Below are positions 15,219-30,646 of a stretch of 64,000 bases of DNA, one piece after another. The stretch comes from an uncultured Planctomycetales bacterium. Lineage in GTDB: Bacteria; Planctomycetota; MHYJ01; JACPRB01. The position numbers and the translations under genes were made by a program. The notes beneath the pieces are model-generated. The model did no database searches. It was not told the origin of the DNA and was given only the letters and a program-made list of their open reading frames with translations. Each line of letters opens with the position of its first letter. The stretch's first letter is position 1. The DNA lies in the NCBI GenBank assembly GCA_964526305.1, contig CAZGKV010000002.1, forward strand, positions 9,599 to 73,598, in the 5' to 3' direction.

Positions 15219-15768
15219 TCTCGCCACGTTGGCCAGGCGCCTGGCCGACGCGCTGGAAGCGGCGGGAGTTCCCTATGCCATAGGCGGTGCGTTGGCCTAT
15301 GGACAGTGGGCGGTTCCCCGCGCCACGGCCGACGTCGACATTACGCTCTTTCTCGACGAACCGGAGTGGCCGAAGGCACTGGATCTTCTCCAGCGGGAGG
15401 GAGTGGAGGGGGACGGTCGGGTCGCCCTCACGGAGCTTCAGGACCGCGGTTCATGCAGATTGAAGGGGGGGGCGTTCTATGTCGATCTGTTCGTCCCGTC
15501 CATTCCCTTCTATTCCGCCGCAAGGAGTCGAATCGTCTTGCGTCCTCTCGTAGGTCGCCCCGCCGGCTTTCTCACCGCGGAAGATCTTTCCGTATTCAAG
15601 ATGCTCTTCTTTCGCCCGAAGGACTTGGTCGACATCCGATACATGCTCGCGGTGCAGGGGGGGGCATTCGATCGATTCTACGTGCGGCATTGGTTGGCCG
15701 AGATGGTCGGCGAGTCCGACGAGCGTGTCCTCCGTTGGGACGAACTATGCCGCGAGGTGCCTGCCTGA
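15199..15768 (+). CDS. Pol-beta superfamily nucleotidyltransferase (AbiEii/MenT/DUF1814-like)
   Basis: hG[GS]x9-13Dh[DE] NTase motif: YAIGGALAYGQWAVPRATADVDITLF. 189 aa. Overlaps the upstream small ORF and overlaps the hemE start by 22 nt. Confidence 0.6.
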   Translation: MPEAPIDLATLARRLADALEAAGVPYAIGGALAYGQWAVPRATADVDITLFLDEPEWPKALDLLQREGVEGDGRVALTELQDRGSCRLKGGAFYVDLFVPSIPFYSAARSRIVLRPLVGRPAGFLTAEDLSVFKMLFFRPKDLVDIRYMLAVQGGAFDRFYVRHWLAEMVGESDERVLRWDELCREVPA

Positions 15769-16787
15769 GCCCAGACGAATCGCGTCTGCTTCGCGCCGCT
15801 CGACGATTGCCGGTGGACCGAACCCCCGTCTGGTTCATGCGCCAGGCGGGCCGTTTCCTGCCGGAGTACCGCGACCTCCGCAAGCGCTACTCGATGCTCG
15901 AACTTTGTACGAACGCGGATCTTGCGGCGCAGGTCACGATGCTTCCGATCCGTCTTCTGCCGGGTCTCGATGCCGCCATCGTCTTCTCGGATCTCCTGCT
16001 GCCGCTTCAGCCGATGGGGCTCGAGATCCGGTTCGCTGCGTCCGAGGGGCCGCAGGTCCTGAATCCGATCGCCCACGAGTCCGATGTCGAGCGCCTGCGT
16101 CCCCTGGAACCCGAGCAGGATCTTCGCCCGGTTCTCGACGCCATTCGGATTCTTCGCCGCGAACTCCAGGTTCCGCTCATCGGTTTCGCGGGCGCGCCGT
16201 TCACCCTCGCGAGTTACGCCATCGAGGGCGGCTCGTCCCGCCATTACCTCAAGACGAAGGGCTTGATGACGAGCCATTCTCCCGTGTGGTCGAGACTCAT
16301 GACCAAGCTGGCGGAGGCTGCGCTTCGCCATCTTCGCGCGCAAATCGAGGCCGGGGCGCAGATGGTCCAGCTCTTCGACAGCTGGGTGGGGGCCTTGGGG
16401 CCCCGCGACTACGAGGAGTTCGTCCTTCCGTATTCGCGAATCGTCTTCGAAGGCCTTCGAGACACCGGTGCTCCCACCATTCACTTCGGGACCGGGACGG
16501 CCTCGCTTCTCGAACTCATGAAGCGGGCCGGTGGGGACGTGATCGGACTGGACTGGCGCGTGAATCTGGCCGAGGCATGGCTGCGCCTTGGAGAGGTCGC
16601 CGTGATGGGGAACCTCGACCCCGCGATGCTTCTGGCTCCCCGGGAGGCGCTCGTGAGTCGGGTGGATTCGATCTTGGATTCGGCGGGGAGGAGGGCCGGA
16701 CACATATTCAACCTGGGGCATGGCGTGCTCCCCGAGACGCCGGTGGAGAATCTCCTGGCCGTCCTTGAGCGGGTCCACTCGCGATGA
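15747..16787 (+). CDS. hemE: uroporphyrinogen decarboxylase
   Basis: DRTPVWFMRQAGRFLPEY signature. Full-length similarity pattern. Start at ATG 15747 rather than the track's 15306 extension, which reads through the previous gene. Confidence 0.9.
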   Translation: MPRGACLSPDESRLLRAARRLPVDRTPVWFMRQAGRFLPEYRDLRKRYSMLELCTNADLAAQVTMLPIRLLPGLDAAIVFSDLLLPLQPMGLEIRFAASEGPQVLNPIAHESDVERLRPLEPEQDLRPVLDAIRILRRELQVPLIGFAGAPFTLASYAIEGGSSRHYLKTKGLMTSHSPVWSRLMTKLAEAALRHLRAQIEAGAQMVQLFDSWVGALGPRDYEEFVLPYSRIVFEGLRDTGAPTIHFGTGTASLLELMKRAGGDVIGLDWRVNLAEAWLRLGEVAVMGNLDPAMLLAPREALVSRVDSILDSAGRRAGHIFNLGHGVLPETPVENLLAVLERVHSR

Positions 16788-17617
16788 AGACGGCGGTTCT
16801 TCTGATGGCGCATGGATCCCCGGACTCCCCGGACCAGATGGAGGAGTACCTCCGGCGGGTGATGGCCCCCCGCGTTCCGAAGCCGGAGTTCGTGGGGGAG
16901 ATGGCGGAGAGATACCGGAAGATCGGCGGCCGGTCACCCCTCCTGGAGATCACTCGCGCCCAGGCTCATGCGCTGGCATCGAGGATCGGCCTGCCGGTCT
17001 ACGTGGGGATGAGGCATTGGCATCCCCTCATCCGGGAGGCGGTGGAGGAAGTTCGGCGCGATGGGGCACGCAAGATCGTCGGACTCGCGCTCGCCCCCCA
17101 GTACTGCCCGGTCAGCGTCGGGGCGTATCACCGCGCCCTCATCGATTCGCGGGAGGATTTGGAGGTGGTGCTTGTCGGCAGTTGGGCGACCGAGCCCGGC
17201 CTCCTCGACTGCTGGGCAGCTCGGTTGCGACCGGGGGCGAACGTCCTGTTCACCGCGCACAGCGTCCCGGTCGATCAGGCGGGTCCATACCCCCAGGAGG
17301 TCCGGGAGACGATTCGCGGGATCCTGGACCGAGTCGAGGTGCGAGCCCATTTCGCCTGGCAGAGCCGGAGTCCCTCTCCGAATCCGTGGTTGGGACCGGA
17401 GATCCAGGAGATTCTCCCCTCCTTGAAGGGGCAAGAGGTGACGGTCGCCCCGATCGGTTTTGTCGCCGAACATGTGGAGACGCTCTACGACCTGGACATT
17501 CTGCACCGGGCGCAGGCGGAGCGGCTCGGGATTCGCTGGAAGCGGGTAGCGATGCCGAACGCCGATCCGATGCTGATCGAGGCGATGGCCTCGGCCTTGA
17601 AGTTTCATCTGAGCTGA
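16784..17617 (+). CDS. hemH: ferrochelatase
   Basis: ATGA overlap with hemE. MAHGSPDSPDQMEEYL, RHWHP, FTAHSVP, GFVAEHVETLYDLDI: ferrochelatase motifs. Confidence 0.9.
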   Translation: MKTAVLLMAHGSPDSPDQMEEYLRRVMAPRVPKPEFVGEMAERYRKIGGRSPLLEITRAQAHALASRIGLPVYVGMRHWHPLIREAVEEVRRDGARKIVGLALAPQYCPVSVGAYHRALIDSREDLEVVLVGSWATEPGLLDCWAARLRPGANVLFTAHSVPVDQAGPYPQEVRETIRGILDRVEVRAHFAWQSRSPSPNPWLGPEIQEILPSLKGQEVTVAPIGFVAEHVETLYDLDILHRAQAERLGIRWKRVAMPNADPMLIEAMASALKFHLS

Positions 17618-17721
17618 ACGACCCTCCATGGGCCTATTGACTCGCTCCGGTTCCGGCCGATATCATTGAAGGCGCTTTTTGCCATGCCCAAGACAACGAT
17701 GATAACAGAAACGAGAATAAG

Positions 17722-18414
17722 ATGCAGCTCTCCGTACGCGAAACGGCTCGTCTACTGAAGGTATCCGAAACTACCGTATATAGATGGATTCGCAAGGGGT
17801 CGATCCCGGCCAGCCAAATCAACGACCAAGTTCGGCTCAGCAGGGCTGAGCTGCTCGAATGGGCGTCCTCGCACAATATCCCCGTCTCCCCCGAGATGTT
17901 CCAGGAACCGGAAGGCGCTGACGGCCAAGTCAGTGGCTTGTTCCAGGCGCTGAAGGCGGGGGGAATCCTCTACGGAATCAAGGGAGCGGACAAACCCGCT
18001 GTCCTTCATGGGGTTGTCGCGGCCATCCCGTTTCCCGAGGATATGGACCGCCAGTTCCTTTGCCAAATTTTATTGGCACGGGAGGCACTGGGATCGACCG
18101 CCATCGGGAACGGAATCGCGATCCCACACGTCCGTCATCCGATCGTGATGCAACTGACGGAGCCGATGATTACCCTCTGCTTCCTGCAGCGGGCCATAGA
18201 TTTCGGTGCTCCGGACGGGAAGCCCGTGGACAAGCTATTCATGCTTTTCAGCCCGACGGTCAAACTGCATCTTCAACTTCTGTCCAAGCTCATTTTCCTA
18301 CTTCGAAGTCCGGAGTTCTGGGGCGCCTTGGTGCGAGCGGCGCCGGCTGAGGAGCTCCTATCCATCGTCCAGAGGACGGAGGGCTCGGTCCCGCGCACCG
18401 GCAAGGCCTCCTAG
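17722..18414 (+). CDS. fusion regulator: N-terminal MerR/excisionase-type HTH + C-terminal PTS EIIA(Ntr)/PtsN-like domain
   Basis: HTH: LSVRETARLLKVSETTVYRWIRKGSIPAS. EIIA type-2 domain with the phosphorylatable His context GNGIAIPHVRH. Stop 18414 lies 4 nt before the next gene. Confidence 0.8.
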   Translation: MQLSVRETARLLKVSETTVYRWIRKGSIPASQINDQVRLSRAELLEWASSHNIPVSPEMFQEPEGADGQVSGLFQALKAGGILYGIKGADKPAVLHGVVAAIPFPEDMDRQFLCQILLAREALGSTAIGNGIAIPHVRHPIVMQLTEPMITLCFLQRAIDFGAPDGKPVDKLFMLFSPTVKLHLQLLSKLIFLLRSPEFWGALVRAAPAEELLSIVQRTEGSVPRTGKAS

Positions 18415-18417
18415 GCC

Positions 18418-20415
18418 ATGCCCCTGAGCCTGGTTCTCCTGGCCGCCGGGGCGATGGCGTTCAGCGGCATCCCCGGGCTCCTCTTCCACTGGCGCTCAAG
18501 AATCGGCCAGTGGATTGCAATGGTCTTCGCAGTCGGCGCGGCCGGGGCCGGGCTCATGGGAGCGTTCGGAGGGATCTTCCAGGCTGAGGCGAGTCTCCGC
18601 GTGCCGTGGCCACTCCCTGGCGCAGAACTGAACGTCCGACTCGATGCCTTGAGCGGTTTTTTCCTCGTCCCCATCTTCCTCATCGGAGGCCTGGGCTCAA
18701 TCTATAGCTTGGGGTATTGGAGCCAACAGGATCGGCCTCGGACCGGCAGGCAGGTGCGGTTCTTCTACGGAGTCCTCGTCGCGGGGATGGCGGTCCTCGT
18801 CGTTGCGAAGAACGGCATTCTCTTCCTCTTCGGTTGGGAGGCAATGGCGCTTGCCTCCTTCTTCCTCATTACCGCCGAATCCCACGATCCCGAGGTGCGC
18901 AAAGCGGGATGGCTCTACTTGATGCTGACCCATGTCGGGACGCTTACTCTCTTCGCGGTGTTCGCGCTGCTGCGGAAGGCGACTGGGTCCTTCCTGCTGA
19001 GACCACTCGGGGTCGAAGAGGCCGGACTCGGGACGTTGATGCTCCTGTTCCTCCTCATGCTCATTGGATTCGGCATGAAGGCGGGCTTGATGCCTCTCCA
19101 TGTCTGGCTTCCGAGCGCGCACGCCAGCGCCCCGAGCCACGTTTCCGCCCTCATGTCCGGGGTGGTGATCAAGATGGGCATCTACGGATTGGTTCGATTC
19201 CTGGGGATGATGCCGCAGCCGCCCGTGAGCTGGGGGGCGATCCTCCTGCTCCTGGGGACGATCAGTGGAGTCGTCGGCGTCTTGTTCGCGATCGGACAGC
19301 ACGACCTCAAGCGTCTCTTGGCCTATCACAGCGTCGAGAATGTCGGCATCATCGTCATGGGGTTGGGTGTCGCGATGCTCGGTCGGTCGTTGGGACGACC
19401 GGATTGGGTAATCCTGGGGTTGGCCGGTTGTCTCCTCCATGTTTGGAACCATGGGTTGTTCAAGGCCCTCCTCTTCCTGGGGGCGGGCTCGGTCATTCAC
19501 GCAGTTCATACTCGTGAAATCGATCGGATGGGCGGCTTGGCCAAGTCGATGCCTCGAACCGCACTCCTGTTCTTGATCGGAGCGGTTGCGATTTGCGGGT
19601 TACCTCCCCTCAACGGGTTCGTGAGCGAACTGCTCGTGTACATGGGATTGTTCCGAACGCTGGGCATCGGCGCGGGGCCGTCCTGGGTCCAGGCGGCGCC
19701 GGCCGCTCCCGCATTGGCTCTGATCGGCGCTCTGGCCGTGGCGTGTTTCGTCAAGGTCTTCGGTGCGGTTTTCCTCGGGAGCGCTCGAAGCCACGATGCG
19801 GAGGGCGCCCGCGAGTCTTCCTGGCCTATGGTCGGAGCCATGGGTGTTCTGGCCGTCTGCTGCGTCGCCATCGGGGTGGCGCCCGTCCTCGTGGGGCCTG
19901 TCCTCGACCGAGCCGCTGCGGCATGGACGAATCAGCCGTTACCCGGCGTCGGCTCGCTCGCCCCGTTCCGGCCGCTGACCTTTCTCGGCGTTGGACTCCT
20001 CGGAGCCATCGCGGCGGGGTGGGCGCTTCTCTCTCGTGTCCGCACTTCGGGCGGAGTGGGAACCTGGGATTGCGGATATGCGGCACCGACCGCGAGGATC
20101 CAATACACGTCCTCCTCCTTCGCCGACACGTTGGTGGGCCTGTTCCGCTGGGTGCTGCGTCCGCGCGTCCATCGTCCTCATCTCGAGGGAATCTTCCCCG
20201 GGGGCACCCGATTCGCGAGTCGCGTGGACGACACGGTTCTCGACGGCCTACTGGCGCCGGCGGCGCGCGCGGCCGAGAAGGCCGTCGGGCGTGTGAAGGT
20301 ATTCCAACAGGGGAGTTCGCAGCGATACATCCTGTACGTTCTCGTCGCGCTCGTTGGGCTGCTGCTTTGGTCTTTCCCGCTGGAGCGCCTGTTCCTCAAG
20401 CTTTTTTCGAGGTGA
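18418..20415 (+). CDS. NuoL/MrpA/HyfB-like antiporter-type membrane subunit of hydrogenase-4/Ehr-like complex
   Basis: 665 aa, about 16 TM helices. WLPSAHASAPSHVSALMSGVVIK and HSVENVGIIV motifs typical of NuoL/HyfB proton-translocating subunits. Confidence 0.85.
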   Translation: MPLSLVLLAAGAMAFSGIPGLLFHWRSRIGQWIAMVFAVGAAGAGLMGAFGGIFQAEASLRVPWPLPGAELNVRLDALSGFFLVPIFLIGGLGSIYSLGYWSQQDRPRTGRQVRFFYGVLVAGMAVLVVAKNGILFLFGWEAMALASFFLITAESHDPEVRKAGWLYLMLTHVGTLTLFAVFALLRKATGSFLLRPLGVEEAGLGTLMLLFLLMLIGFGMKAGLMPLHVWLPSAHASAPSHVSALMSGVVIKMGIYGLVRFLGMMPQPPVSWGAILLLLGTISGVVGVLFAIGQHDLKRLLAYHSVENVGIIVMGLGVAMLGRSLGRPDWVILGLAGCLLHVWNHGLFKALLFLGAGSVIHAVHTREIDRMGGLAKSMPRTALLFLIGAVAICGLPPLNGFVSELLVYMGLFRTLGIGAGPSWVQAAPAAPALALIGALAVACFVKVFGAVFLGSARSHDAEGARESSWPMVGAMGVLAVCCVAIGVAPVLVGPVLDRAAAAWTNQPLPGVGSLAPFRPLTFLGVGLLGAIAAGWALLSRVRTSGGVGTWDCGYAAPTARIQYTSSSFADTLVGLFRWVLRPRVHRPHLEGIFPGGTRFASRVDDTVLDGLLAPAARAAEKAVGRVKVFQQGSSQRYILYVLVALVGLLLWSFPLERLFLKLFSR

Positions 20416-20419
20416 GAGG

Positions 20420-21328
20420 GTGGTCGAGAGGATCGTTCACGTCGTCTTGTTCTTGACGATGCCTCCGCTCTTGCTCGGAGTCATCCACAAGACGAAAGCT
20501 CTCTTCGCCGGTCGGGTCGGGCCTCCCGTTCTTCAGCCGTACTTCGATCTCATCAAGTTGATGCGGAAGGGCATGGTGTTGAGCTCGACCACCACCTGGA
20601 TCTTCCGCGCGAGCCCGGTGGTCACGGTGGCGACCGTCCTCCTGGCGGGCCTCCTGATTCCACTCGGTCGATTCGACGCTCCGATCGTATTCGCCGGGGA
20701 TCTGATTCTCTTCGCGTACCTGTTCGCCCTCGCCCGATTCTTCACCACCGCGGCGGCGCTGGACACCGGATCTCCCTTCGAGGGGATGGGAGCGGCGCGG
20801 GAAGTCACCTTCGCCTGCTTCTCGGAACCCGCGCTCTTCTTCGCGCTTCTTTCGCTCGCCAGACTCAGCGGCTCGGTGAGTCTCACGGCCATGCTCCACT
20901 CGGCGCAGTTCGGCGGCGCAGGGCTCTCGAGCGCGGCCCTCCTTCTCGTCGCCGTCGGGCTCTTCCTCTTCCTTCTCTCCGAGAATTGTCGGATACCGGT
21001 GGACGATCCGAACACGCACCTCGAGCTCACGATGATCCACGAGGTCATGGTGCTCGATCACGGCGGGCCCTTGTTCGGGATGATCCTCTACGGGGCGTCG
21101 CTGAAGCTCTTCGTGCTGAGCGCGCTCTTTGTCCACGTGGTGGCCCCCATTCGGACGACTCGTCCTTGGCTCGACACGGGGATCTTCGTCGCCCTCATGA
21201 TCGGCGTGGCCGTGCTGGTGGGAGTCGTCGAGTCGGTGATGGCCCGTCTCCGGATGCGGCACGTGCCGACGCTCCTCATCGCGTCGTGCCTTCTGTGCGG
21301 CTTCGGATTTCTCCTCCTGGTGAGATGA
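20420..21328 (+). CDS. NuoH/HycD/HyfC-like membrane subunit
   Basis: GTG start 5 nt after the previous stop. Multi-TM protein with the NuoH-family region (DPNTHLELTMIHEVMVLDHGGPLFG). Confidence 0.8.
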   Translation: MVERIVHVVLFLTMPPLLLGVIHKTKALFAGRVGPPVLQPYFDLIKLMRKGMVLSSTTTWIFRASPVVTVATVLLAGLLIPLGRFDAPIVFAGDLILFAYLFALARFFTTAAALDTGSPFEGMGAAREVTFACFSEPALFFALLSLARLSGSVSLTAMLHSAQFGGAGLSSAALLLVAVGLFLFLLSENCRIPVDDPNTHLELTMIHEVMVLDHGGPLFGMILYGASLKLFVLSALFVHVVAPIRTTRPWLDTGIFVALMIGVAVLVGVVESVMARLRMRHVPTLLIASCLLCGFGFLLLVR

Positions 21329-21329
21329 C

Positions 21330-21974
21330 ATGCTGACGACGGCGGCCGACGCGATCCTCATCGTGGTTCTCCTGATGAATCTCTTCATGCTGGGGACGAG
21401 TCGGATCAACTCGGTGATCCGGATCGTCGCGGCCCAGGGGGTGGCGCTCGGGGTGATGGCCCTGATCCAGCACGGGGAATTGGGATTGCGGACCGTCCTC
21501 CTCGCCGGTGCGACGATCGCCGTCAAGGGGGCCGTCATTCCCTGGATGCTGACCCGCGCGATGCGTCAGGTGCAGATCAAAAGGGAGGTGGAGCCGCTCG
21601 TCGGCTTGGTACCTTCGATGCTCTTGGGGGCCGCCGGAACGGGTCTGGCCGTGCTCTTCGCGGCGCAGCTTCCCATCGTTCGGGGACACGGCTCGTCGCT
21701 GATCGTGCCCGCTTCGCTCGCAACCGTATTGACCGGATTCGTTCTTCTGACCACGCGGATCAAGGCCATCAGCCAGGTCCTGGGATACCTCGCGCTCGAG
21801 AACGGAATCTTCACCTTCGGTCTCCTGCTCCTCGAGGCGATGCCGTTCTTGGTGGAGATCGGGGCGTTGCTGGATCTCTTCGTGGGCGTCTTCGTGATCA
21901 GCATCATCATCCACCACATCAATCGGGAGTTTGCGACCTTGGATACGCGGAAGCTCTCCACGCTCAAGGACTGA
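21330..21974 (+). CDS. HyfE-like (hydrogenase-4 component E) small membrane subunit
   Basis: 214 aa with 6-7 TM helices, directly abutting the previous gene. Size, hydropathy and position match HyfE of hyf operons. Confidence 0.7.
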   Translation: MLTTAADAILIVVLLMNLFMLGTSRINSVIRIVAAQGVALGVMALIQHGELGLRTVLLAGATIAVKGAVIPWMLTRAMRQVQIKREVEPLVGLVPSMLLGAAGTGLAVLFAAQLPIVRGHGSSLIVPASLATVLTGFVLLTTRIKAISQVLGYLALENGIFTFGLLLLEAMPFLVEIGALLDLFVGVFVISIIIHHINREFATLDTRKLSTLKD

Positions 21975-21978
21975 CGCC

Positions 21979-23412
21979 ATGGCTCTCGCGATGGTTCTCG
22001 CCCCGATGGCGCTGGCGCTCGTCGCCTGGGCCGTTCCCAGCGACCGCCTTCGAGTCTGGGCGCTTCCGCTCGGAGGCGTCGCCCAGATTGCGGCCACGGG
22101 GATCAGTTTGTGGCGTCCCGGCCTTCCCACCGGCGGAAGTTGGCTCGTCCTCGACGCCCCCGGCCGCGTCGTTCTCGTCACGATCAGCGCGCTCTTCTTC
22201 TTGTGCAGCCTGTACGGGGTCGGCTACTTGCGCTACCGGACCGAGAGGCCCAACCGCGTGTTCTGCAGCTGCCTCCTGCTCCTGCTGGGGATCATGAATC
22301 TGGTCGTCTGGTCCCATCATTTGGGGTTGATGTGGGTGGGGATCGAGGCGACGGCCCTGGCTACGGCGCCGCTCCTCTATTTCAATCGGACCCCGCAATC
22401 CATCGAGGCGACGTGGAAGTATCTCCTCGTCGGCTCGGTCGGAATCGCCCTGGCCCTCTTCGGTTCCTACTTCCTGGCGTATTCCTCGCTGCACGCCGGC
22501 CATGCGTCGTCCCTCATGTTCGACGATCTCCTTCGAATCGCTCCGCATCTCTCCAAGCCGTGGCTGCACGTCGCGTTCGTTCTGCTCCTGGTGGGATACG
22601 GGACGAAGATGGGAATCGCGCCGCTCCACACCTGGAAACCCGACGCGTACGGCGAGGCTCCGGGACTCGTGGGCGCGATCTTGGCCGGAGGGGTCACGAA
22701 CTGCGCGTTCCTCTCGCTCCTGCGCGTCTATCGCATCTGCGTCGCGGCGGGGGAGGGACCGTTCGCGGGGCGCATGATGATCTTCCTGGGACTCCTCTCG
22801 ATGGCGGTGGCGGGCGCGTTCATGATCGGGCAACGCGATCTGAAGCGGATGCTCGCCTACTCGAGCGTCGAGCACATGGGGATCCTCACCTTGGGCGTCG
22901 GGATCGGCGGCGGGGCTCTCTTCGGTGCGATGCTCCATCTCGTCAACAACGGAATGACGAAGGGGATCACGTTTCTGGCCGCGGCGAACATCCATCGGGC
23001 CTTCGGGAGTAAGGCCACCGGAGCCGTAGCCGGAGCCATGCGGCGCCTCCCCGTTTCGGGGACCCTCTTCCTGGCCGGATTCCTTGCGATCACCGGGTCG
23101 CCTCCTTTCGGACCGTTCGTGAGCCAGTTCGCGATCTTCAATGGAGCCGTCGCCGGCGGACGCGCCTGGATCGCGTTTCTCTTTCTGGCCTTCCTCGCCG
23201 TGGTGTTCCTGGGGATGGGAACGACGGTGCTGCGGGCGGTGCAGGGACGGCCCTCCGCAGCGGCCATGGCATCGCCATACCGGGATGGAGTCCTCACCAC
23301 GGTTCCCCTGCTCGTTTTCCTCGGGGTCGTTCTGATGTTGGGGGTGTACATTCCCGAACCGTTGCGGCGAATGCTGACGGAGGCGGTGGCCTTCGTGGAG
23401 GGCCGGCCATGA
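21979..23412 (+). CDS. NuoN/NuoM/HyfF-like antiporter-type membrane subunit
   Basis: ATG 21979 starts 5 nt after HyfE stop. WKYLLVGSVGIALALFG, PLHTWKPDAYGEAP, YSSVEHMGILTLGVG: NuoN/HyfF motifs. Confidence 0.85.
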   Translation: MALAMVLAPMALALVAWAVPSDRLRVWALPLGGVAQIAATGISLWRPGLPTGGSWLVLDAPGRVVLVTISALFFLCSLYGVGYLRYRTERPNRVFCSCLLLLLGIMNLVVWSHHLGLMWVGIEATALATAPLLYFNRTPQSIEATWKYLLVGSVGIALALFGSYFLAYSSLHAGHASSLMFDDLLRIAPHLSKPWLHVAFVLLLVGYGTKMGIAPLHTWKPDAYGEAPGLVGAILAGGVTNCAFLSLLRVYRICVAAGEGPFAGRMMIFLGLLSMAVAGAFMIGQRDLKRMLAYSSVEHMGILTLGVGIGGGALFGAMLHLVNNGMTKGITFLAAANIHRAFGSKATGAVAGAMRRLPVSGTLFLAGFLAITGSPPFGPFVSQFAIFNGAVAGGRAWIAFLFLAFLAVVFLGMGTTVLRAVQGRPSAAAMASPYRDGVLTTVPLLVFLGVVLMLGVYIPEPLRRMLTEAVAFVEGRP

Positions 23413-24908
23413 ATCGGTTTCGGCCGATGTTCCCCGGCAAGGCCGTGGAATTGGACGAGGTGCCTCGACTGGGCCTCGCCGAATTTCAGCAGTCGATCGT
23501 CGAGGGGGTGAGCGCGGGGGCGAGGATCTCGGCGCTGTTCGGCGCGGGTTCCCAGGTCGTCACCCTCTACGGCGTCCTGGCGGACGATCCGGAGAGCCGA
23601 CTCCTGGTGGCAAGGAGCGAGGTGGAGGGAGATTCGTTCGAATCCATTACGCCTCGATGCCCCCAAGCGCATCTTTTCGAGCGGGAGATTGCGGAACAAT
23701 TCGGACTGATGCCCCGAGGCCATCCCTGGCTGAAGCCCGTTCGGTTTCATCCTTCCTACCGGCCGGGACACGCCGTCTGGCCGGATCCGACGATCGGCGT
23801 CACCGACTTTTACCGGGTCGAAGGCGAGGAGATCCACGAGGTGGGAGTCGGCCCCGTCCACGCGGGAGTGATCGAGCCGGGGCACTTTCGGTTCCAATGT
23901 CACGGCGAGGAAGTCTTCCACCTGGAGATTTCCCTGGGATACCAGCACCGGGGAGTGGAGCCGGCCCTGGTGGGGGGACCGAACCGCAGAACGATCCACC
24001 TCATGGAAACGACGGCGGGCGACACCACCGTGGGGCACGCGACGGCCTACTGCGAGGTCATGGAAGCCCTGACCCGCTGCCAGAAATCGGCCCGCGCGCA
24101 GGTCCTGAGGGGGATCGCCCTCGAGCTGGAGCGGCTGGCGAATCACGTGGGGGATCTGGGGGCGTTGGCGAACGACGTCGGGTTTCTCCCGACGGCCTCC
24201 TACTGCGGTCGCATTCGGGGCGACTTCCTCAACATGACCGCACTTCTGTGCGGGAGCCGCTTCGGACGGGGATTCCTTCGGCCGGGCGGCGTAGGGTTCG
24301 ACGTGGACGATGTGCGAGTCGGGACGCTCCTGGAGCGGCTGGCCGCGGCGCAGAAGGACACGAGGGTGGCGGTCGATCTGTTGTGGGCGAGCCCCTCGGT
24401 GATGGCACGGTTCGAGGAGACCGGTGCCATACCAAAAGAGGTATGTACACAGTTGGGACTCGTCGGGCCCGCCGCACGGGCGTGCGGCGTCGAATTGGAC
24501 GTGCGTCGCGATCAGCCGTCGGGAATCTACCGGTTCAGTCACATCCCGGTTGCGAGTTGGCCGAGCGGAGATGTGTTCGCGCGGGCGTACGTGCGGTGGC
24601 TCGAGATCGAGCGATCGATCCTCTTCATCCGGGAGCAGCTCAAGGCGCTGCCGTCAGGATCGGTGGGGGTGGATGCCGGGAGTCCGCAGCCCGACCGCAT
24701 CGCGGTCTCGTTGGTGGAGGGATGGCGGGGGGAAATCTGCCATGTTGCGCTGACCGATGCGGAGGGCCGGTTCTTGCGGTACAAGATCGTCGATCCCTCC
24801 TTCCACAACTGGACCGGCCTGGCGTACGCGCTACGAAATCAACAGATCTCCGATTTTCCGCTGTGCAACAAGAGCTTTAATCTCTCGTACTGCGGGCACG
24901 ACCTATGA
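23409..24908 (+). CDS. [NiFe]-hydrogenase large-subunit homolog (fused NuoC-NuoD/HycE-like) that apparently lacks the N-terminal Ni-binding CxxC
   Basis: ATGA overlap. GPVHAGVIEPGHFRF...HRG...TVGHATAY aligns to the HycE GPLHVTSDEPGHFRL...RVCGICGFAHSTAY region (HycE recalled from memory), but with AGDTTVG in place of CGICGFA. C-terminal ISDFPLC...SYCGHD retains one Cys of the DPCxxC L2 motif with aberrant spacing. Confidence 0.8.
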   Translation: MNRFRPMFPGKAVELDEVPRLGLAEFQQSIVEGVSAGARISALFGAGSQVVTLYGVLADDPESRLLVARSEVEGDSFESITPRCPQAHLFEREIAEQFGLMPRGHPWLKPVRFHPSYRPGHAVWPDPTIGVTDFYRVEGEEIHEVGVGPVHAGVIEPGHFRFQCHGEEVFHLEISLGYQHRGVEPALVGGPNRRTIHLMETTAGDTTVGHATAYCEVMEALTRCQKSARAQVLRGIALELERLANHVGDLGALANDVGFLPTASYCGRIRGDFLNMTALLCGSRFGRGFLRPGGVGFDVDDVRVGTLLERLAAAQKDTRVAVDLLWASPSVMARFEETGAIPKEVCTQLGLVGPAARACGVELDVRRDQPSGIYRFSHIPVASWPSGDVFARAYVRWLEIERSILFIREQLKALPSGSVGVDAGSPQPDRIAVSLVEGWRGEICHVALTDAEGRFLRYKIVDPSFHNWTGLAYALRNQQISDFPLCNKSFNLSYCGHDL

Positions 24909-25660
24909 TCGATGTCTTTCTCGCGCGGCTTCAGCAGAAGCACCGGACGATTCCGTTTCCCGGTCACGAGCCGACGCTTCCCGATCTGTTCCGAGGGAGG
25001 CCGGAGATCGACGGCTCGAAGTGTCCCGAGGGGTGTCGCGATTGTGTGGAGGCTTGTCCGACCGGCGCGGTGAAGCTGGAAGGAGGAGTCTCCGTGGATC
25101 TGGGGCGCTGCCTCTTCTGCGCGGAGTGTTCGCGGGCATGTCCGCAGGGGGCGATCACCCATACGCGGGATTATCGGATGGCGACCCGCGCACGCGAGGA
25201 CTTGGTCCTGTCTGGAAAGGCGATGGAGCTGGCGAAGGCCCTCGACGGGAAGATGCGATCGCTCTTCGGGCGATCCCTCAAGCTGCGTCAGGTCAGCGCC
25301 GCAGGTTGCAACGCCTGCGAGGCGGACGTCAACGTCCTGAACACCGTCGTCTTCGACCTCGGGCGATTCGGAATCCAGATCGTCGCTTCGCCACGCCATG
25401 CGGACGGCCTTCTCATCACGGGTCCGGTATCGCGGAACATGAAGCTCGCGCTCGAAAAAACTTACGCCGCGGTCCCGCCTCCCAAGCTCGTGATCGCGGT
25501 GGGGGCATGCGCGATCAGCGGCGGGCCCTTCGTCGATTCCCCCGAGGTCTGCAATGGAGCGGGCGGAATCGTGCCGGTGGATCTCTACATTCCGGGATGC
25601 CCTCCTCATCCGATCACCATTCTCGACGGACTCCTCCGGTTGTTGGGGCGCATCTCATGA
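24905..25660 (+). CDS. fusion of 2x[4Fe-4S] ferredoxin (NuoI/HycF-like) and NuoB/HycG-like hydrogenase small subunit
   Basis: ATGA overlap. CPEGCRDCVEACP and CLFCAECSRACP ferredoxin motifs. Then NuoB-type cluster ligands GCNACE, GACAISGGP, PGCPPHP. Confidence 0.8.
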   Translation: MIDVFLARLQQKHRTIPFPGHEPTLPDLFRGRPEIDGSKCPEGCRDCVEACPTGAVKLEGGVSVDLGRCLFCAECSRACPQGAITHTRDYRMATRAREDLVLSGKAMELAKALDGKMRSLFGRSLKLRQVSAAGCNACEADVNVLNTVVFDLGRFGIQIVASPRHADGLLITGPVSRNMKLALEKTYAAVPPPKLVIAVGACAISGGPFVDSPEVCNGAGGIVPVDLYIPGCPPHPITILDGLLRLLGRIS

Positions 25661-25705: not shown

Positions 25706-26017
25706 ATGTGGCCGTGGATCATCCTGGCGGCCGTATGGGCTGCCGCGGGGTATCAGGCGTGGCACGCGTATCGCCAGGCGCGGATGGCGGAGCCCGCGAA
25801 TCCGCTCGCGGCGATCGCGGCGCGGGTGAAGGTGGGGCTCGGTTTCCTCTGGGCGATCCTCATGCTCTTGGCCGGAGCGATCGCGTCGTTGACGGTGGCC
25901 TCGGCCGAGAAGAATCGCGTCGCCTCCTGGGCGGCCGGGGGGACGATGGCGCTGGCGGTCTTGGGCGGGATGGGAGCGTGGAAGTGGTTCTGGAGGCGTC
26001 GACGAACGGCGTCGTGA
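25706..26017 (+). CDS. small membrane protein, hypothetical (3 TM)
   Basis: 103 aa hydrophobic ORF between the Ehr-like operon and the ion-channel gene. Stop 26017 lies 8 nt before the channel ATG. Confidence 0.4.
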   Translation: MWPWIILAAVWAAAGYQAWHAYRQARMAEPANPLAAIAARVKVGLGFLWAILMLLAGAIASLTVASAEKNRVASWAAGGTMALAVLGGMGAWKWFWRRRRTAS

Positions 26018-26025
26018 CACCGGGA

Positions 26026-26787
26026 ATGGAACTCAAGAACGTCGTAGAATCGAAGTGGTTCCGCACTACGGTGGCGCTGCTCATCGGCCTGAATGCGCTG
26101 GTGGTAGGGGCCGAGACGTATCCCCAAGTTACAAGCCGCTTCGGGAAATGGCTTGAGGCGACCGATCGCATCATTCTCGTCCTCTTCGCGGTGGAACTGG
26201 TGCTTCGGTTCATCGCCACGCCGCCTCGGTATCGGTTTTTCCTCAACGGATGGAATCTCTTCGACATCGTGATCGTGAGTGCCGGATTCGTGCCGGCAAC
26301 CGAATACCTCTCGGTCCTGCGGTTGCTGCGGATCATCCGAATCCTCCGCGCCGTGACGGTGATGCCCCATCTGCAGAAACTGGTCCTGGCGCTCTTGAGG
26401 AGTCTCCCTTCTCTGGGGCACATCGCCTTCCTACTCGGCCTTCTCTTCTTCGCGTTCGGGGCGACGGGTACCTATCTCTTCCGGGACGTGGATCCGAACA
26501 ACTTCGGCTCCCTTCACCGATCGATGCTGACGCTCTTCGGCGTCGTCACGCTGGAGGGATGGGTCAGCGTGATGGAGGGGCTGCTGAAGCACAAACCATG
26601 GGCGTGGCTGTACTTCGTCAGCTTCATCCTCCTCGGAACGTTCATCTCCATGAACCTGTTCGTCGGCGTCCTCGTGAACAACCTCCAATCCGCCGAGGCG
26701 GAAGACAAGGAGGCTCACGACAAGGCCGTACGCGATCGCCTGGCCCGGATCGAAGAGAAACTCGACGCCCTCCTCCCTCCCCGATGA
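26026..26787 (+). CDS. voltage-gated cation channel (NaChBac/NavAb-like single-domain ion transport protein)
   Basis: S4 voltage sensor with Arg every third residue (LSVLRLLRIIRILRAV). Pore/selectivity region FGVVTLEGWVSVM (TLESW-like). 6-TM architecture. ATG 26026 chosen rather than the upstream in-frame 25708. Confidence 0.8.
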   Translation: MELKNVVESKWFRTTVALLIGLNALVVGAETYPQVTSRFGKWLEATDRIILVLFAVELVLRFIATPPRYRFFLNGWNLFDIVIVSAGFVPATEYLSVLRLLRIIRILRAVTVMPHLQKLVLALLRSLPSLGHIAFLLGLLFFAFGATGTYLFRDVDPNNFGSLHRSMLTLFGVVTLEGWVSVMEGLLKHKPWAWLYFVSFILLGTFISMNLFVGVLVNNLQSAEAEDKEAHDKAVRDRLARIEEKLDALLPPR

Positions 26788-26852
26788 TATAGAAATAGCC
26801 AGGCTTCTTTTATATCATGATATAAAAGAAGCCTGGCTATTTCTATATCATC
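26783..26852. repeat. perfect 70-bp AT-rich palindrome (35-bp arms, no spacer)
   Basis: GATGATATAGAAATAGCCAGGCTTCTTTTATATCAT|GATATAAAAGAAGCCTGGCTATTTCTATATCATC is exactly self-reverse-complementary. It starts inside the channel stop codon (TGA 26785-26787). About 30% GC in a ~67% GC context. No T-tract follows. Confidence 0.9.
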
Positions 26853-26927
26853 GAGACAAAGGGGGGCGCCGACTCCATGCGGCCGGGTGTTGACGGCGAG
26901 GCCTCAACCCGCTATGAATCTCCCTTG

Positions 26928-27653
26928 ATGGACGCGGTACCGATGATCGAGGCCCAGGGCCTCTGCAAGTATTACGGCTCCTTTGCCGCACTTCGGGACG
27001 TCAGCTTCTCGGTTCCGCAGGGCCAGGTCGCCGCCTTCTTGGGGCCAAACGGGGCGGGGAAGTCCACCACGATGAAAATCCTGACGGGCTTTCTTGCACC
27101 CAGCTCCGGCACCGCCCGCATCGCGGGTTGCGACGTATCGACCCAACGACTCGCGGCCGCGAAGCACCTCGGATACCTGCCCGAGAACGGGCCTCTCTAC
27201 CTCGACATGACTCCCATCGCCTTGCTCCAGTTCTTTGGGAAGGCGCGCGGGATGGGCGGCGCGCTCCTGCAGCAGCGGATCGGAGAGCTCGCGGGACGAT
27301 GCGGCATCGAACCGGTTCTCTACAAGCCGATATTCAAACTCTCCAAAGGATACCGCCAACGCGTAGGAATGGCCCAAGTCCTCCTCCACGATCCGAGCGT
27401 CCTGATCATGGACGAACCGACGTCCGGCCTCGACCCCAATCAGATCCGAGACGTGCGCGCCACCATCCGAGAACTTGGCAAAACCAAGACGATTCTGCTT
27501 TCGACCCATATCCTTCAGGAGGTCCCCGCGATGGCGGACCGCGTGATCTTCATCCACGACGGCCGGATCGTCTTCGACGGGACGCCGAAGGAGATGTGCG
27601 CGGAGAGCGAATCCTTGGAAGTATTCTTCCACCAGAAAACGGGGGCCCTCTAG
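26928..27653 (+). CDS. ABC transporter ATP-binding protein (GldA-like)
   Basis: Walker A GPNGAGKST, signature LSKGYRQRV, Walker B LIMDEPTSGLD, H-loop. Start at ATG 26928 (the track's 26877 ATG lies just after the palindrome and is equally possible). Confidence 0.85.
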   Translation: MDAVPMIEAQGLCKYYGSFAALRDVSFSVPQGQVAAFLGPNGAGKSTTMKILTGFLAPSSGTARIAGCDVSTQRLAAAKHLGYLPENGPLYLDMTPIALLQFFGKARGMGGALLQQRIGELAGRCGIEPVLYKPIFKLSKGYRQRVGMAQVLLHDPSVLIMDEPTSGLDPNQIRDVRATIRELGKTKTILLSTHILQEVPAMADRVIFIHDGRIVFDGTPKEMCAESESLEVFFHQKTGAL

Positions 27654-27655
27654 CG

Positions 27656-30646
27656 ATGCGAGCGTTCGTCATCCGAGCCATCTTCTGGCGGAACTTCGTC
27701 GCCTATTTCTCCAAGCCCACCGGATACGTTTTCATCACCGTCTTCCTGTTCTTGGGCGCGCTCCTCGCCTTCTTCCGGGCCGAGTTCTTCAAAAACAACC
27801 TCGCGACCCTCGACACCCTGAGCGAATACTTTCCCTGGCTGCTCGTTCTATTCGTTCCCATGGTCACGATGAGCGCCTGGGCGGAGGAGCGACTTCACGG
27901 AACCGACGAACTCCTGCTGACCTTGCCCGTCCGCGATCTGGAAGTCGTCTTGGGAAAGTACCTGGCCTGTCTTGGCATCTATACGGTCGCTCTCGCTTTT
28001 TCCGTCAGCCACCTCTTCGTGCTGGCGTTCCTGGGACAACCCGATGCCGGATTGATGGTGTCGACCTATTTCTCCTATTGGCTCCTGGGAGCCGCGCTCC
28101 TTGCGGCCGGAATGGTGGGATCGTCCCTGACTTCCAGCCTCCCGATCGCTTTCATCCTGGGACTGATTCACTGCGCTGTCCTAGTGGGATTGGGATTCGG
28201 CGACCTAGTCCTTCCTCCAACCTGGGAAGGGATCGTCGCTCCGGTGGGCATCACCGCCTATTTCACGGAAGTCAATTCCGGCGTGCTCAGCCTCCGAGCC
28301 GTCCTCTACTTTTCCTCGCTCACCGGTGTGTTGCTCTACCTCAATCTCCTGTTGCTCTCGAGGCGCCGTTGGACAGGGGGAGGGTTCTCCTTCTCCCTTT
28401 TCATCGTCCTATGCCTCAGCGTGACGGTCGGATTCCTGGTGACGCGGAGTCCTCTCAAGAGCCCCTGGCCCTGGGTACCTCTCGCTGCCGCGCTCGGCGC
28501 CGCTCTGTGGCAGTTCATTCTGGGAGGATCCTGGGATCCGCGAGCCGGCCTGGCCGGCGCGCGGTGGGGACTGCTGGCGGCCGCTCTGGTGGGAGTGAAC
28601 GCTCTGGTCGGTCGCGCCCGGGCGGGAATGGACGCCACCGCCGAAAAACTCCACACGCTCTCGCCGGAAACGCGCGGCGTTCTCTCCAGGATCTCTCCCG
28701 ACGAGCCTGTCTACGTCCATGCCTATGTCAGCCCGGAGGTTCCGAAGGAGTGGGTCCAGCGTCGCGCGACCCTCATCGCCCTCCTGCGCGACTTCGAGGC
28801 TTTGGGAGGCGGTCAGGTCCAAGTCAAGGTGTACGAGACCGAGAAGTACACCCCGGTCGCGAGGGACGCGAAGGAGAAGTTCGGGATCGAGCCTCAAGCG
28901 GTGGGGAATCGCGACGAGGGAGAGAGCGCCAAGAAGGAAATCTATCTCGGGGTGGCCGTCGTCTCCGGCGCCCGCGAAACGGTCGTTCCGTTCCTGTACA
29001 AGGGACTCTCGGTCGAGTACGAACTGACTCGGTCGATTCGCGCGGTTTCGGGACAGGCAAGGCGTAAGATCGGAATCCTCTCCACCGACGCCCGGCTCTT
29101 CGGCGGCATCACCAACTTCCAGACGTTTCAGCAGGCTCCTGAATGGCAATTCGTCGCCGAATTGCGAAGACAGTATGAAGTCGTCCAAGTCATGCCGGGG
29201 GAAGCGGTCCCCGACACGATCGATGCCTTGGTTCTTCCGCTTCCCTCCTCGCTCACCGACCCTCAACTCACCCAAATCGAGACCTTCCTGAAAACCGATC
29301 CGCCCTCGTTGGTGCCGATCGCTCCGTGTCCCGACTTGGGAGCCAAGTGCAAAGAGGCGACCGACAAGCTGAAAAAGGAGGGACAGCGCTGGATCGTGGC
29401 GAAGGGCAAGATCGAGGGACTCTGCGCGAAGTGCGCCGAACGCTTCCATCAATTCGAGAGATACGAATGGCCCGTGTTGGTCTTGGAGGACCCGCTGCCT
29501 TGGTTCGATCCGTCGCTCGCTCCGTGGCAGCAGAAGCGCCCTCCCGGCGGAATGATGTTCGGAAACATGCAGCGGCCCGAGCCCAAGGGAGACGTCGGCC
29601 GACTCTTCCGGCAGCTCGGCGTCCAACTCGACACCCAGAACGTCGTTTGGCACACCTACAATCCCTACCCAGATCTTCGGATGCTCCCCTTCGAGTTCGT
29701 ATTCGTCGGAAGTTCCGATTCCGGGGGGGCGGCTCTGCTGCGCGGGATGGGCGGCGTCGCAGCCGCGACGGACGGTCTGGTCGCGCCCTCCGGCGAACCC
29801 TTCGCCGCGAAAGACCCGATCAGTTCGGGACTCCAGAGCATGGTGTTCCTCTATACGGGAATGGTGCGCCCGTTGTCGGCCACCGGCGGTCCGGTCTTCA
29901 CTCCGCTGGTCCGTACGTCCCGTCATTCCGGAATCCGCATCGCATCGCGCATTCGCTCGCGCGAAGACGGAGAGGAGGCCCGGGGAAAGCCCACCAACGT
30001 GGAATACACTCTGGCCGCCCGCGTTAAGGGAAAGGGCGTGAATGCGGTCGTCATCGCCGATCTCGATTTGATCGGAGACGTGTTCTTCAACCTCCGGCGA
30101 GACAAATGGGAGAACAAAGAGTTCGACAACATCACGTTCGTCCTGAATTGCGTGGACGCCCTCTTGGGGGACGAGTCGACGATCGGCTTGCGCAAACGGC
30201 GTCCCAAGCATCGCGTGCTCGAGCTCATCGAGACCGAGATTCTCGCCCACGATCAGATCGCCCTTTTCCAGGAGGAGAAGGCGGAAGAAAACGCCCGCAC
30301 TCGTCTCCGAGAAGCGCAGGATCATCTGGATGCCGAGGTTCGCAAAGTCGAACAGCGTCCCAACCTCGACGACAAAGAGAAAGAGCGCCTCAAGTCCGCC
30401 AAACAGGAAGAGGAGCAGCGCAAATTCAACCGTACCAAGCGAGAAATCGAGGATGAGAAAGAAGCGGCCATCGAGGCGAGCAAGACGAGCAAGGATCGCG
30501 AAATCAAACGGATCCAGCGGACGATCCGTACCCTTGCTGTGGTGCTGCCGCCCTTGCCGGCTCTTCTCATCGGAGTCATCGTCTTCTTCTTCCGGTTCGG
30601 TCGGGAGCGTCAGGCGATCCCGAAGGAACGGTGGGTAAAACCGTGA
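27656..30646 (+). CDS. ABC-2 type permease fused to GldG-like periplasmic domain (GldF/GldG-like), C-terminal coiled coil and TM anchor
   Basis: ATG 27656 lies 3 nt after the ATPase stop (the track's 27128 extension is out of context). N-terminal 6-TM ABC-2 domain. Long extracytoplasmic GldG-like region. Charged coiled coil (EEKAEENARTRLREAQDHLDAEVRK...). Terminal TM LPALLIGVIVFFF. Confidence 0.8.
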   Translation: MRAFVIRAIFWRNFVAYFSKPTGYVFITVFLFLGALLAFFRAEFFKNNLATLDTLSEYFPWLLVLFVPMVTMSAWAEERLHGTDELLLTLPVRDLEVVLGKYLACLGIYTVALAFSVSHLFVLAFLGQPDAGLMVSTYFSYWLLGAALLAAGMVGSSLTSSLPIAFILGLIHCAVLVGLGFGDLVLPPTWEGIVAPVGITAYFTEVNSGVLSLRAVLYFSSLTGVLLYLNLLLLSRRRWTGGGFSFSLFIVLCLSVTVGFLVTRSPLKSPWPWVPLAAALGAALWQFILGGSWDPRAGLAGARWGLLAAALVGVNALVGRARAGMDATAEKLHTLSPETRGVLSRISPDEPVYVHAYVSPEVPKEWVQRRATLIALLRDFEALGGGQVQVKVYETEKYTPVARDAKEKFGIEPQAVGNRDEGESAKKEIYLGVAVVSGARETVVPFLYKGLSVEYELTRSIRAVSGQARRKIGILSTDARLFGGITNFQTFQQAPEWQFVAELRRQYEVVQVMPGEAVPDTIDALVLPLPSSLTDPQLTQIETFLKTDPPSLVPIAPCPDLGAKCKEATDKLKKEGQRWIVAKGKIEGLCAKCAERFHQFERYEWPVLVLEDPLPWFDPSLAPWQQKRPPGGMMFGNMQRPEPKGDVGRLFRQLGVQLDTQNVVWHTYNPYPDLRMLPFEFVFVGSSDSGGAALLRGMGGVAAATDGLVAPSGEPFAAKDPISSGLQSMVFLYTGMVRPLSATGGPVFTPLVRTSRHSGIRIASRIRSREDGEEARGKPTNVEYTLAARVKGKGVNAVVIADLDLIGDVFFNLRRDKWENKEFDNITFVLNCVDALLGDESTIGLRKRRPKHRVLELIETEILAHDQIALFQEEKAEENARTRLREAQDHLDAEVRKVEQRPNLDDKEKERLKSAKQEEEQRKFNRTKREIEDEKEAAIEASKTSKDREIKRIQRTIRTLAVVLPPLPALLIGVIVFFFRFGRERQAIPKERWVKP

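Follow-up and report, generated by a model that had tools for sequence, protein, structure and literature searches.

In the 64,000 nucleotides (nt) of contig CAZGKV010000002.1 from an uncultured Planctomycetales bacterium analysed here (the window), the gene at 23409..24908 (+) encodes a 499-residue fusion of NuoC-like and NuoD/HycE-like domains that is most probably (roughly 0.9) the large subunit EhrL of an Ehr complex, a branch of the complex I/group 4 hydrogenase superfamily, and not that of a NiFe hydrogenase. Judged from the alignments, four of the four Ni/Fe-ligating cysteines are gone from this protein (hereafter the query), with Ala, Thr, Ser and Gly in their places. A preliminary description of this DNA had likewise argued for an Ehr-type complex over a Ni-Fe hydrogenase, and our searches bear this out: the ligand cysteines are absent, and the fold, the small-subunit clusters, the membrane subunits and the gene order all fit Ehr. 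The cassette that contains the gene is a typical member of this known and widespread family and no new kind of system. The name has been used both as 'Ech-hydrogenase-related', for Geobacter sulfurreducens GSU0739-45 (EhrA-1, EhrC, EhrL, EhrS; Coppi 2005, as relayed in PMC7894505 and PMC13194489), and as 'energy-converting hydrogenase related' (Marreiros 2013, as relayed in PMC6349859), and in the literature the Ehr proteins are described as missing the NiFe ligands and as having an unsolved function (PMC6349859, PMC10284858, PMC7894505, PMC13194489).

The query matched the Pfam families PF00329 (Complex1_30kDa) and PF00346 (Complex1_49kDa), and its NCBIfam matches were to NuoD, all of them sub-threshold. 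When it was compared with all PDB sequences, the best match was to HycE of the Escherichia coli formate hydrogenlyase (7z0s_E, E=1e-45), and the next closest relatives were Nqo4 of Thermus thermophilus and MbhL of Pyrococcus furiosus. An AlphaFold2 model built from an alignment of 38 sequences had a mean predicted local distance difference test (pLDDT) score of 90 and a predicted template modelling score (pTM) of 0.92, with low confidence in the NuoC-NuoD linker, the beta1-beta2 loop (150-156) and residues 495-499 (pLDDT <50); a Foldseek search with this model returned HycE (7z0s_E) first (TM-score 0.88) and E. coli NuoCD second (0.84). By this model the query has kept the hydrogenase fold. 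More than 50 of its positions are invariant across the family. Near-invariant among its relatives are the hydrogenase-type motif GPVHAG(V/I)IEPGHFRF, which includes Glu156, and the segment GPVHAGVIEPGHFRF; E156 itself, the Glu of the beta1-beta2 loop, is invariant. Family-specific invariants are G204-D205 (in place of C-G-x-C), N487-K488-S489, S493-Y494, G496 and D498. The 'GHATAY' neighbourhood, which had been described as conserved, is indeed present, but it is only moderately conserved, with H210 in 59 and Y214 in 35 of 82 representatives. An antisense ORF (open reading frame) at 22857-24542 and other overlapping ORFs were dismissed as shadow ORFs of this 64% GC sequence, for which we found no homology support.

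At the first ligand motif (L1), the HMMER alignment pairs RVCGICGFAHSTAY of HycE (in longer form LSDRVCGICGFAHSTAY) with TTAGDTTVGHATAY of the query (LMETTAGDTTVGHATAY), placing both L1 cysteines of HycE on A203 and T206, the Ala and Thr that the preliminary description had also named. The former L1 CxxC site (24015..24026, +) now reads A203-G204-D205-T206, and its central G-D is near-invariant in the family. At the second motif (L2), ISDFPLCNKSFNLSY of the query pairs with VSDAPLIIGSLDPCY of HycE. An exhaustive HMMER search with the large subunit, covering 1.84 billion cluster representatives, also yielded two relatives that carry both CxxC motifs (with L2 of the type NKSFNLCYSCTDR), namely P0249 (L1 RVCGACSFSH, L2 DFPLVNKSFNLCYSCTDR) and P0254 (L1 RICGVCAASH, L2 DFPLINKSFELCYSCTDL), both probably of group 4f, and the segment DFPLCNKSFNLSYCGHDL of the query is collinear with the L2 regions of both. 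Because the register is set by HycE together with these CxxC-bearing relatives, the counterparts of the L2 cysteines in the query are S493 and G496; the former L2 CxxC site (24885..24896, +) now reads S493-Y494-C495-G496, and the protein ends three residues past it, the C-terminal extension being absent. In this register C486 pairs with a V/I of the CxxC relatives, and C495 with the Ser between their two L2 cysteines. An earlier hand alignment, which had the first L2 Cys retained, was thus seven residues off, and the unusual partial retention of L2 that had been read from it is a product of the same mis-register.

These replacements are a property of the family. Among 86 sequences (the window, 81 orthologues and four paralogues) the L2 positions were S/G in all 86, and Cys was found at neither L1 position in any. 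Where the group 4 [NiFe]-hydrogenases have the L1 motif C[GS][ILV]C..H the query reads AGDT, and where they have the L2 motif [DE][PL]CxxCxD[RL] it reads NLSYCGHDL, with C495 out of register, and neither motif is matched. The query does share with these hydrogenases (HycE/Hyf, group 4a) the motif GPxHxxxxEPGHFR, the proximal CxxC and the Hyf-like membrane subunits; unlike them, it lacks the four Ni/Fe ligands, the C-terminal extension and any linkage to HycI/Hyp, while the complex has neither a formate dehydrogenase nor a HycB-type partner, and its NuoI- and NuoB-like proteins are encoded as a fusion.

This fusion is the EhrS-like small subunit (24905..25660, +; 251 residues), which was recognized by Pfam and NCBIfam as a NuoI/HycF-like protein joined to a NuoB/HycG-like one. 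Its NuoI-like 2x[4Fe-4S] domain contains two motifs of the CxxCxxCxxxCP type (C40, 44, 47, 51 and C69, 72, 75, 79), and in its NuoB-like domain the ligands of the proximal [4Fe-4S] cluster (C135, C138, C202 and C232) pair with those of MbhJ and HycG in alignments to PDB entries. Each of the 12 cluster cysteines is kept in ~89-97% of 71 sequences (the window and 70 orthologues), and the non-ligand C216 is variable across the same set. The proximal-cluster motif, GCNAC, is of the hydrogenase type (CxxC), the tandem CC of complex I being absent. On sequence grounds, EhrS has every Cys that three [4Fe-4S] clusters arranged as a wire would need.

The cassette is tightly packed on one strand, with the EhrL gene in sixth place, and runs in the order ehrR-like, HyfB-like, NuoH-like, HyfE-like, HyfF-like, EhrL-like and EhrS-like. 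The HyfB/NuoL-like antiporter-type subunit (EhrA-like; 18418..20415, +; 665 residues) matched PF00361 and PF00662, and scored 586 bits, under the cutoff, against the NCBIfam model for hydrogenase 4 subunit B. The NuoH/HyfC-like membrane subunit (20420..21328, +; PF00146) has 302 residues from a likely GTG start; its ORF opens at 20354, and we chose the GTG at 20420 from an upstream GAGG and from the 303-residue length of the Fontivita orthologue. The HyfE-like small membrane subunit (EhrC-like; 21330..21974, +; 214 residues) matched NF008556, the hydrogenase 4 membrane subunit (E=1e-17), and the HyfF/NuoN-like antiporter-type subunit (21979..23412, +) matched PF00361 and the NCBIfam hydrogenase 4 subunit F; the ORF of the latter opens at 21931, and the likely start is the ATG at 21979, giving 477 residues in which the Glu of transmembrane helix (TM) 5 and the Lys of TM7 are retained. 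The membrane arm, with two antiporter-like, one NuoH-like and one HyfE-like subunit, is intact. As a whole set, and in its gene order, the cassette recurs in 81 loci of diverse phyla at 50-70% identity, and some loci have a second HyfB-like gene.

The first gene of the cassette, the ehrR-like gene (17722..18414, +), encodes an N-terminal helix-turn-helix (HTH) domain (HTH_17, PF12728) and a C-terminal EIIA-2 domain (PF00359) of the phosphotransferase system (PTS), with a sub-threshold match to PtsN, and its stop lies 3 nt 5' of the HyfB-like gene. The predicted phospho-His is H136 in GNGIAIPH (codon 18127-18129), and the PtsN-type motif G.GiAiPH is kept in 41 orthologues of the regulator. The regulator adjoins the cassette in 40 of the 56 genome loci with enough upstream DNA; in a reciprocal search with the regulator as the query, the HyfB-like gene came next in all 59 metagenome loci having at least 900 bp downstream, and the full cassette set was present in 16 of the 17 regulator-fetched loci having at least 8.5 kb downstream. 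New in this analysis is the finding that the HTH_17+EIIA gene belongs to the cassette as a dedicated component. A consensus scan found a sigma-70-like promoter match, TTGACT-18-TATCAT (17637..17666, +; 10/12 positions, a pattern match only), ahead of this gene, and no inverted repeats were seen upstream of it.

The corrected L2 register leaves three further cysteines of the query to be accounted for: C164, C486 and C495 (codons 23898..23900, 24864-24866 and 24891-24893, +). Of 82 orthologues at 50% identity or more, 76 have all three, and the three are absent from HycE, from the CxxC relatives P0249 and P0254 and from a Hyq-like basal clade described below, from which it follows that the triad arose after the NiFe ligands had been lost. 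The C-x8-C spacing that had been pointed out between C486 and C495 is thus real and conserved in the orthologue group, but its reading as a remnant of L2 does not stand; on these alignments the triad is a derived feature. One possibility that we regard as unlikely is that the triad forms a new redox thiol/disulfide or metal/FeS (iron-sulfur) site, making the complex a ferredoxin-driven reductase of sulfur, a disulfide or a small substrate, with chemistry of the kind found in MBS/Mbx or ferredoxin:thioredoxin reductase. Its conservation across phyla after ligand loss speaks for such a site, as does the position of C495 inside the former L2 turn; the L2 turn of hydrogenases faces the proximal cluster. 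The P. furiosus MBS/Mbx systems (6u8y) resemble the query in being hydrogenase-derived with H2 no longer made, MBS being ferredoxin-dependent, and the L and J subunits of this sulfane reductase are detectable homologs (6u8y_L, E=4e-16; J, 3e-19); MBS is nevertheless much more distant from the window complex, and its membrane arm is of a 13-subunit Mrp type. Against the idea, each triad Cys is individually replaceable, with changes seen in some orthologues and in wider relatives (CNC, CCS, CCA, ACA), C164, eight residues away from E156 on a beta-strand, may be remote from the pocket, and the model has pLDDT <50 at residues 495-499; nor do sulfur-metabolism genes recur among the neighbours of the cassette. 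Extended to the main Ehr clade, the same idea would have a triad-based site beside the proximal cluster act in an ion-pumping reductase of a disulfide, a persulfide or another substrate, gated by the EIIA-HTH protein (phosphoenolpyruvate (PEP)/pyruvate, carbon and nitrogen status), and we consider this version unlikely as well.

More than 8000 database matches to the large subunit were found, the top 120 of which were all 67-72% identical and came from Planctomycetota (Tepidisphaeraceae, Fontivita pretiosa), Latescibacteria, Sumerlaeota, Lentisphaeria, Dormibacteraeota and others; these best hits point to a probable Planctomycetota-like source of the window. Surveying one genome per GTDB species, we found the large subunit to have a relative in at least 596 of them, with more than ten phyla represented. 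The best 80 of these (51-66% identity) included members of the Planctomycetota, Verrucomicrobiota, Spirochaetota, Acidobacteriota (Geothrix paludis), Desulfovibrionaceae, Gemmatimonadota, Desulfuromonadota (Geomonas limicola, Geobacter, Pelobacter), Omnitrophota, Fibrobacterota, Riflebacteria, Hydrogenedentota and Elusimicrobia. Neighbour joining with HycE as the root gathered the Cys-less sequences into a single clade, sister to the CxxC/CxxC proteins P0249 and P0254, with the Hyq-like group basal and the query in a large derived clade. Published trees place Ehr beside the group 4f hydrogenases (PMC10284858), in agreement with ours.

The complex of Geobacter is one of the closest described counterparts. 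Like that of the window, it has a large subunit without the NiFe cysteines, NuoL/HyfB-, NuoH-, HyfE- and HyfF-like subunits and a small subunit, and the Geobacteraceae orthologues (Geomonas limicola and metagenome-assembled genomes of Geobacter and Pelobacter) are 58-60% identical and have the same gene order, the EIIA regulator included. The window differs in having one HyfB-like gene as opposed to two in the Geobacter-type, Fontivita and several other loci. Orthology to G. sulfurreducens GSU0739-45 may be proposed by way of these Geobacteraceae relatives. All subunits of the Geobacter Ehr were found in the proteome, at higher levels on formate, with reverse electron transport put forward as a possible role (PMC7894505). 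For Geobacter KN400 the operon has been assumed to be a relic, and ehr mutations have been read as a sign of relaxed selection (PMC13194489); the loss of the catalytic ligands might invite the same view of the window cassette as a decayed, non-functional hydrogenase operon. We consider this extremely unlikely in the face of seven to eight intact, translationally coupled genes, identities of 50-72% over ten or more phyla, more than 50 invariant positions and conserved FeS ligands, and given that the Geobacter subunits are all detected and regulated by growth condition (PMC7894505).

A tblastn search with E. coli HypA-E, HycI and HycH matched nothing in the window, nor anything in 82 related loci and their ~10-kb flanks. 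A candidate HypE at 37262-38242 (-), the one AIR-synthase-like gene of the window, was rejected: it is SelD, the selenide, water dikinase (TIGR00476, 325 bits), and scored 45 bits against HypE, for which the cutoff is 252. The presence of SelD implies that the organism uses selenium. The preliminary description had proposed that hyp genes in the genome, together with a grouping of the subunit among bona fide group 4 hydrogenases, would speak against an Ehr assignment; such genes do not discriminate, because G. sulfurreducens, which has Ehr, possesses hyp genes and four NiFe hydrogenases as well (PMC7894505), and their presence or absence is for this reason a weak test.

A second Cys-less system, Hyq of Azorhizobium caulinodans and other rhizobia, bears on whether Ehr might still turn over H2. 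The hyqRBCEFGI operon has the order R-B-C-E-F-G-I in common with the window, as well as a fused NuoC::NuoD protein of ~500 residues, and HyqG of Rhizobium johnstonii pRL11 is 36% identical to the query and Cys-less in the same register (TSGDSTVAY ... NCSYSGHDL). HyqI, at 177 residues, has no NuoI-like 2x[4Fe-4S] domain, whereas the small subunit of the window does; HyqR is a 98-residue HTH protein without the EIIA domain of the window regulator; and HyqG lacks C164 and C495 of the triad, with the Hyq clade separate and basal. We therefore ruled out an assignment of the query to the Hyq endo-hydrogenase subgroup on the EIIA domain, the extra 2x[4Fe-4S] domain, the 36% identity and the separate clade. 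In Azorhizobium, where hyq is under NifA/sigma-54 control, deletion of hyq stops endogenous H2 recycling, and H2 evolution was reported at <1 µM O2 (PMC2650096, PMC3357923). Together with the shared gene order, the Cys-less HyqG and the invariance of E156, the proton-relay Glu of hydrogenases, this could suggest that the query belongs to a non-canonical hydrogenase that turns over H2 without the classical four cysteines. We know of no H2-activating chemistry without a NiFe, FeFe or Fe-GP cofactor, and this counts against such an enzyme; in each of the 86 sequences the four ligand positions are taken by small or hydroxyl residues, and maturation and endopeptidase genes are unlinked to the cassette. 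Furthermore, the Hyq evidence is genetic and from strains that also have Hup and nitrogenase, and other authors hold Ehr to be incapable of H2 turnover (PMC6349859, PMC10284858, PMC13194489), so that we judge H2 turnover by the query very unlikely. In two loci (L031:13353-20548 and L050:2505-9920) a second operon, paralogous, Hyq-like and Cys-less, adjoins the main ehr cassette, and its large subunit is ~36% identical.

We looked for a redox partner by all-against-all clustering of the ORFs of the 81 loci and by Pfam annotation of 95 immediate same-strand neighbours, and found no recurrent redox partner gene next to the cassette in either set. Formate dehydrogenase, carbon monoxide dehydrogenase, pyruvate:ferredoxin oxidoreductase and NuoEF were each considered as linked partners and rejected, as none recurs in the 81 loci; what does recur near ehr loci are only generic kinases, ABC ATPases and a weak SulP/STAS signal. 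The lack of a recurrent partner gene favours a diffusible carrier. It has also to be asked whether the complex might mainly be an Mrp-like device for ion transport or homeostasis, with its FeS arm structural or a redox sensor. Two Mrp/Nuo antiporter-like subunits and an EIIA regulator dedicated to the cassette would suit this role, EIIA(Ntr)-type proteins being regulators of K+ transport in proteobacteria, and the recurrent immediate neighbours are ion transporters only (SulP/STAS in six loci, Na_Ca_ex in one, and a BacNav channel in the window). However, the 12 cluster cysteines are kept across phyla, a distal ferredoxin-like domain would be pointless without an electron partner and the links to transporters are weak (at most six of 81 loci), which makes a mainly ion-handling role unlikely.

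Compared with complex I (NuoC/NuoD, NuoB, NuoI, NuoH), the window complex has a similar fused C-D protein, three terminal clusters and NuoH plus antiporter-like subunits, and the NuoEFG module is absent from both the cassette and its neighbours. A canonical quinone site was rejected since its ligand positions are occupied by I155 and G204; with the Ni/Fe ligands lost as well, the pocket of the large subunit is, by alignment, a site of neither kind. Taking these comparisons together, our analysis leans towards a complex that is redox-active, linked to a carrier and ion-translocating. As there is no linked dehydrogenase, the NuoI-like domain would trade electrons with a diffusible low-potential carrier, most probably ferredoxin, that docks on it as in Ech, Mbh and MBS. 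The three clusters would then connect this carrier with a site where EhrL, EhrS and the NuoH-like subunit meet, electrons passing in one direction or the other; the substrate handled there would be other than H+/H2, and this electron transfer would be coupled to the translocation of H+ or Na+. The complex may also work in reverse, with the proton motive force driving the reduction of ferredoxin for reductive carboxylations, and its expression would be set by the EIIA-type HTH regulator through its PTS(Ntr) phosphorylation state, that is, by PEP/pyruvate and by carbon and nitrogen status. As to the partner at the internal site, our first guess, a tentative and doubtful one, is the (mena)quinone pool of the membrane, with a non-canonical mode of binding.

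Several points weigh against this functional proposal. The quinone ligands H38 and Y87 of T. thermophilus Nqo4 have as their aligned counterparts I155 and G204, two invariant residues of the family, and the CxxC of the proximal cluster, hydrogenase-type and not the CC of complex I, speaks against a quinone partner, as does the report of Ehr in lineages where a quinone biosynthesis pathway was not found (PMC6349859). In the membrane arm, FVSQFAIF of the HyfF-like subunit has Gln at the position of the TM12 Lys of MbhH, MbsH and NuoN (F-x-S-K). We can only infer that ferredoxin is the donor and which way the reaction runs, and the literature that we searched gave no biochemical data on any Ehr complex. 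Finally, Hyq, a Cys-less sister, is reported from genetics to both oxidise and evolve H2 in vivo (PMC2650096, PMC3357923).

Directly 3' of the cassette lies a gene for a BacNav/NaChBac-like voltage-gated sodium channel (25708-26787, +; likely start Met near 26026), with phmmer matches to 4bgn_A (1e-71) and to NaChBac (6vwx_A, 8e-65) and a filter-like motif, TLEGW. This neighbour was found in the window only and in none of the 81 other loci; its position next to the cassette could hint at a Na+ cycle, as a single case. The gene is followed immediately by a perfect palindrome with a 20-bp stem, ATAGCCAGGCTTCTTTTATA...TATAAAAGAAGCCTGGCTAT (26795-26840; a pattern match only), which looks like a bidirectional terminator-like hairpin at the end of the regulator-to-channel block. 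In the wider set, SulP anion transporters with STAS domains occur on the same strand within ~10 kb of the cassette in six of 81 loci (L027, L038, L052, L067, L079 and L080), from Planctomycetota, Verrucomicrobiota and Omnitrophota, and abut it in L080 (12059-14005), L079 (2528-4363) and L067 (2198-4225), and apparently in L038 too; a Na_Ca_ex gene lies near the cassette in one further locus.

Upstream of the cassette are hemE and hemH. The hemE ORF (15306-16787, +) has a 157-residue N-terminal extension ahead of its URO-D domain, probably because its start was mis-called by a first-start rule, and hemH (16784-17617) follows it. Downstream of the hairpin is a gliding-motility (Gld-like) ABC transporter cluster (26877-32202, +) made up of an ABC_tran ATPase, a large ABC-2 membrane protein with ABC_transp_aux and DUF7088, and a DUF4340 protein. 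A 1122-residue Ser/Thr protein kinase with a long array of tetratricopeptide repeats is encoded at 1394-4762 (+), and similar kinases near ehr loci belong to a generic family. A scan of the whole window with Rfam gave zero matches.

Few members of the complex I/hydrogenase superfamily without an assigned reaction are as widespread as Ehr, and the labels that its large subunit frequently carries, 'Ni,Fe-hydrogenase III large subunit' or 'NADH-quinone oxidoreductase subunit C', can falsely suggest H2 metabolism. The corrected L2 register lets the Cys-less members be recognised reliably. The conserved, derived Cys triad is an experimental handle that can be mutated, and cultured carriers of the complex include Geobacter, Geomonas limicola, Geothrix paludis and Fontivita pretiosa. 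The signal sensed by the EIIA-type regulator, in turn, could show when the complex is needed.

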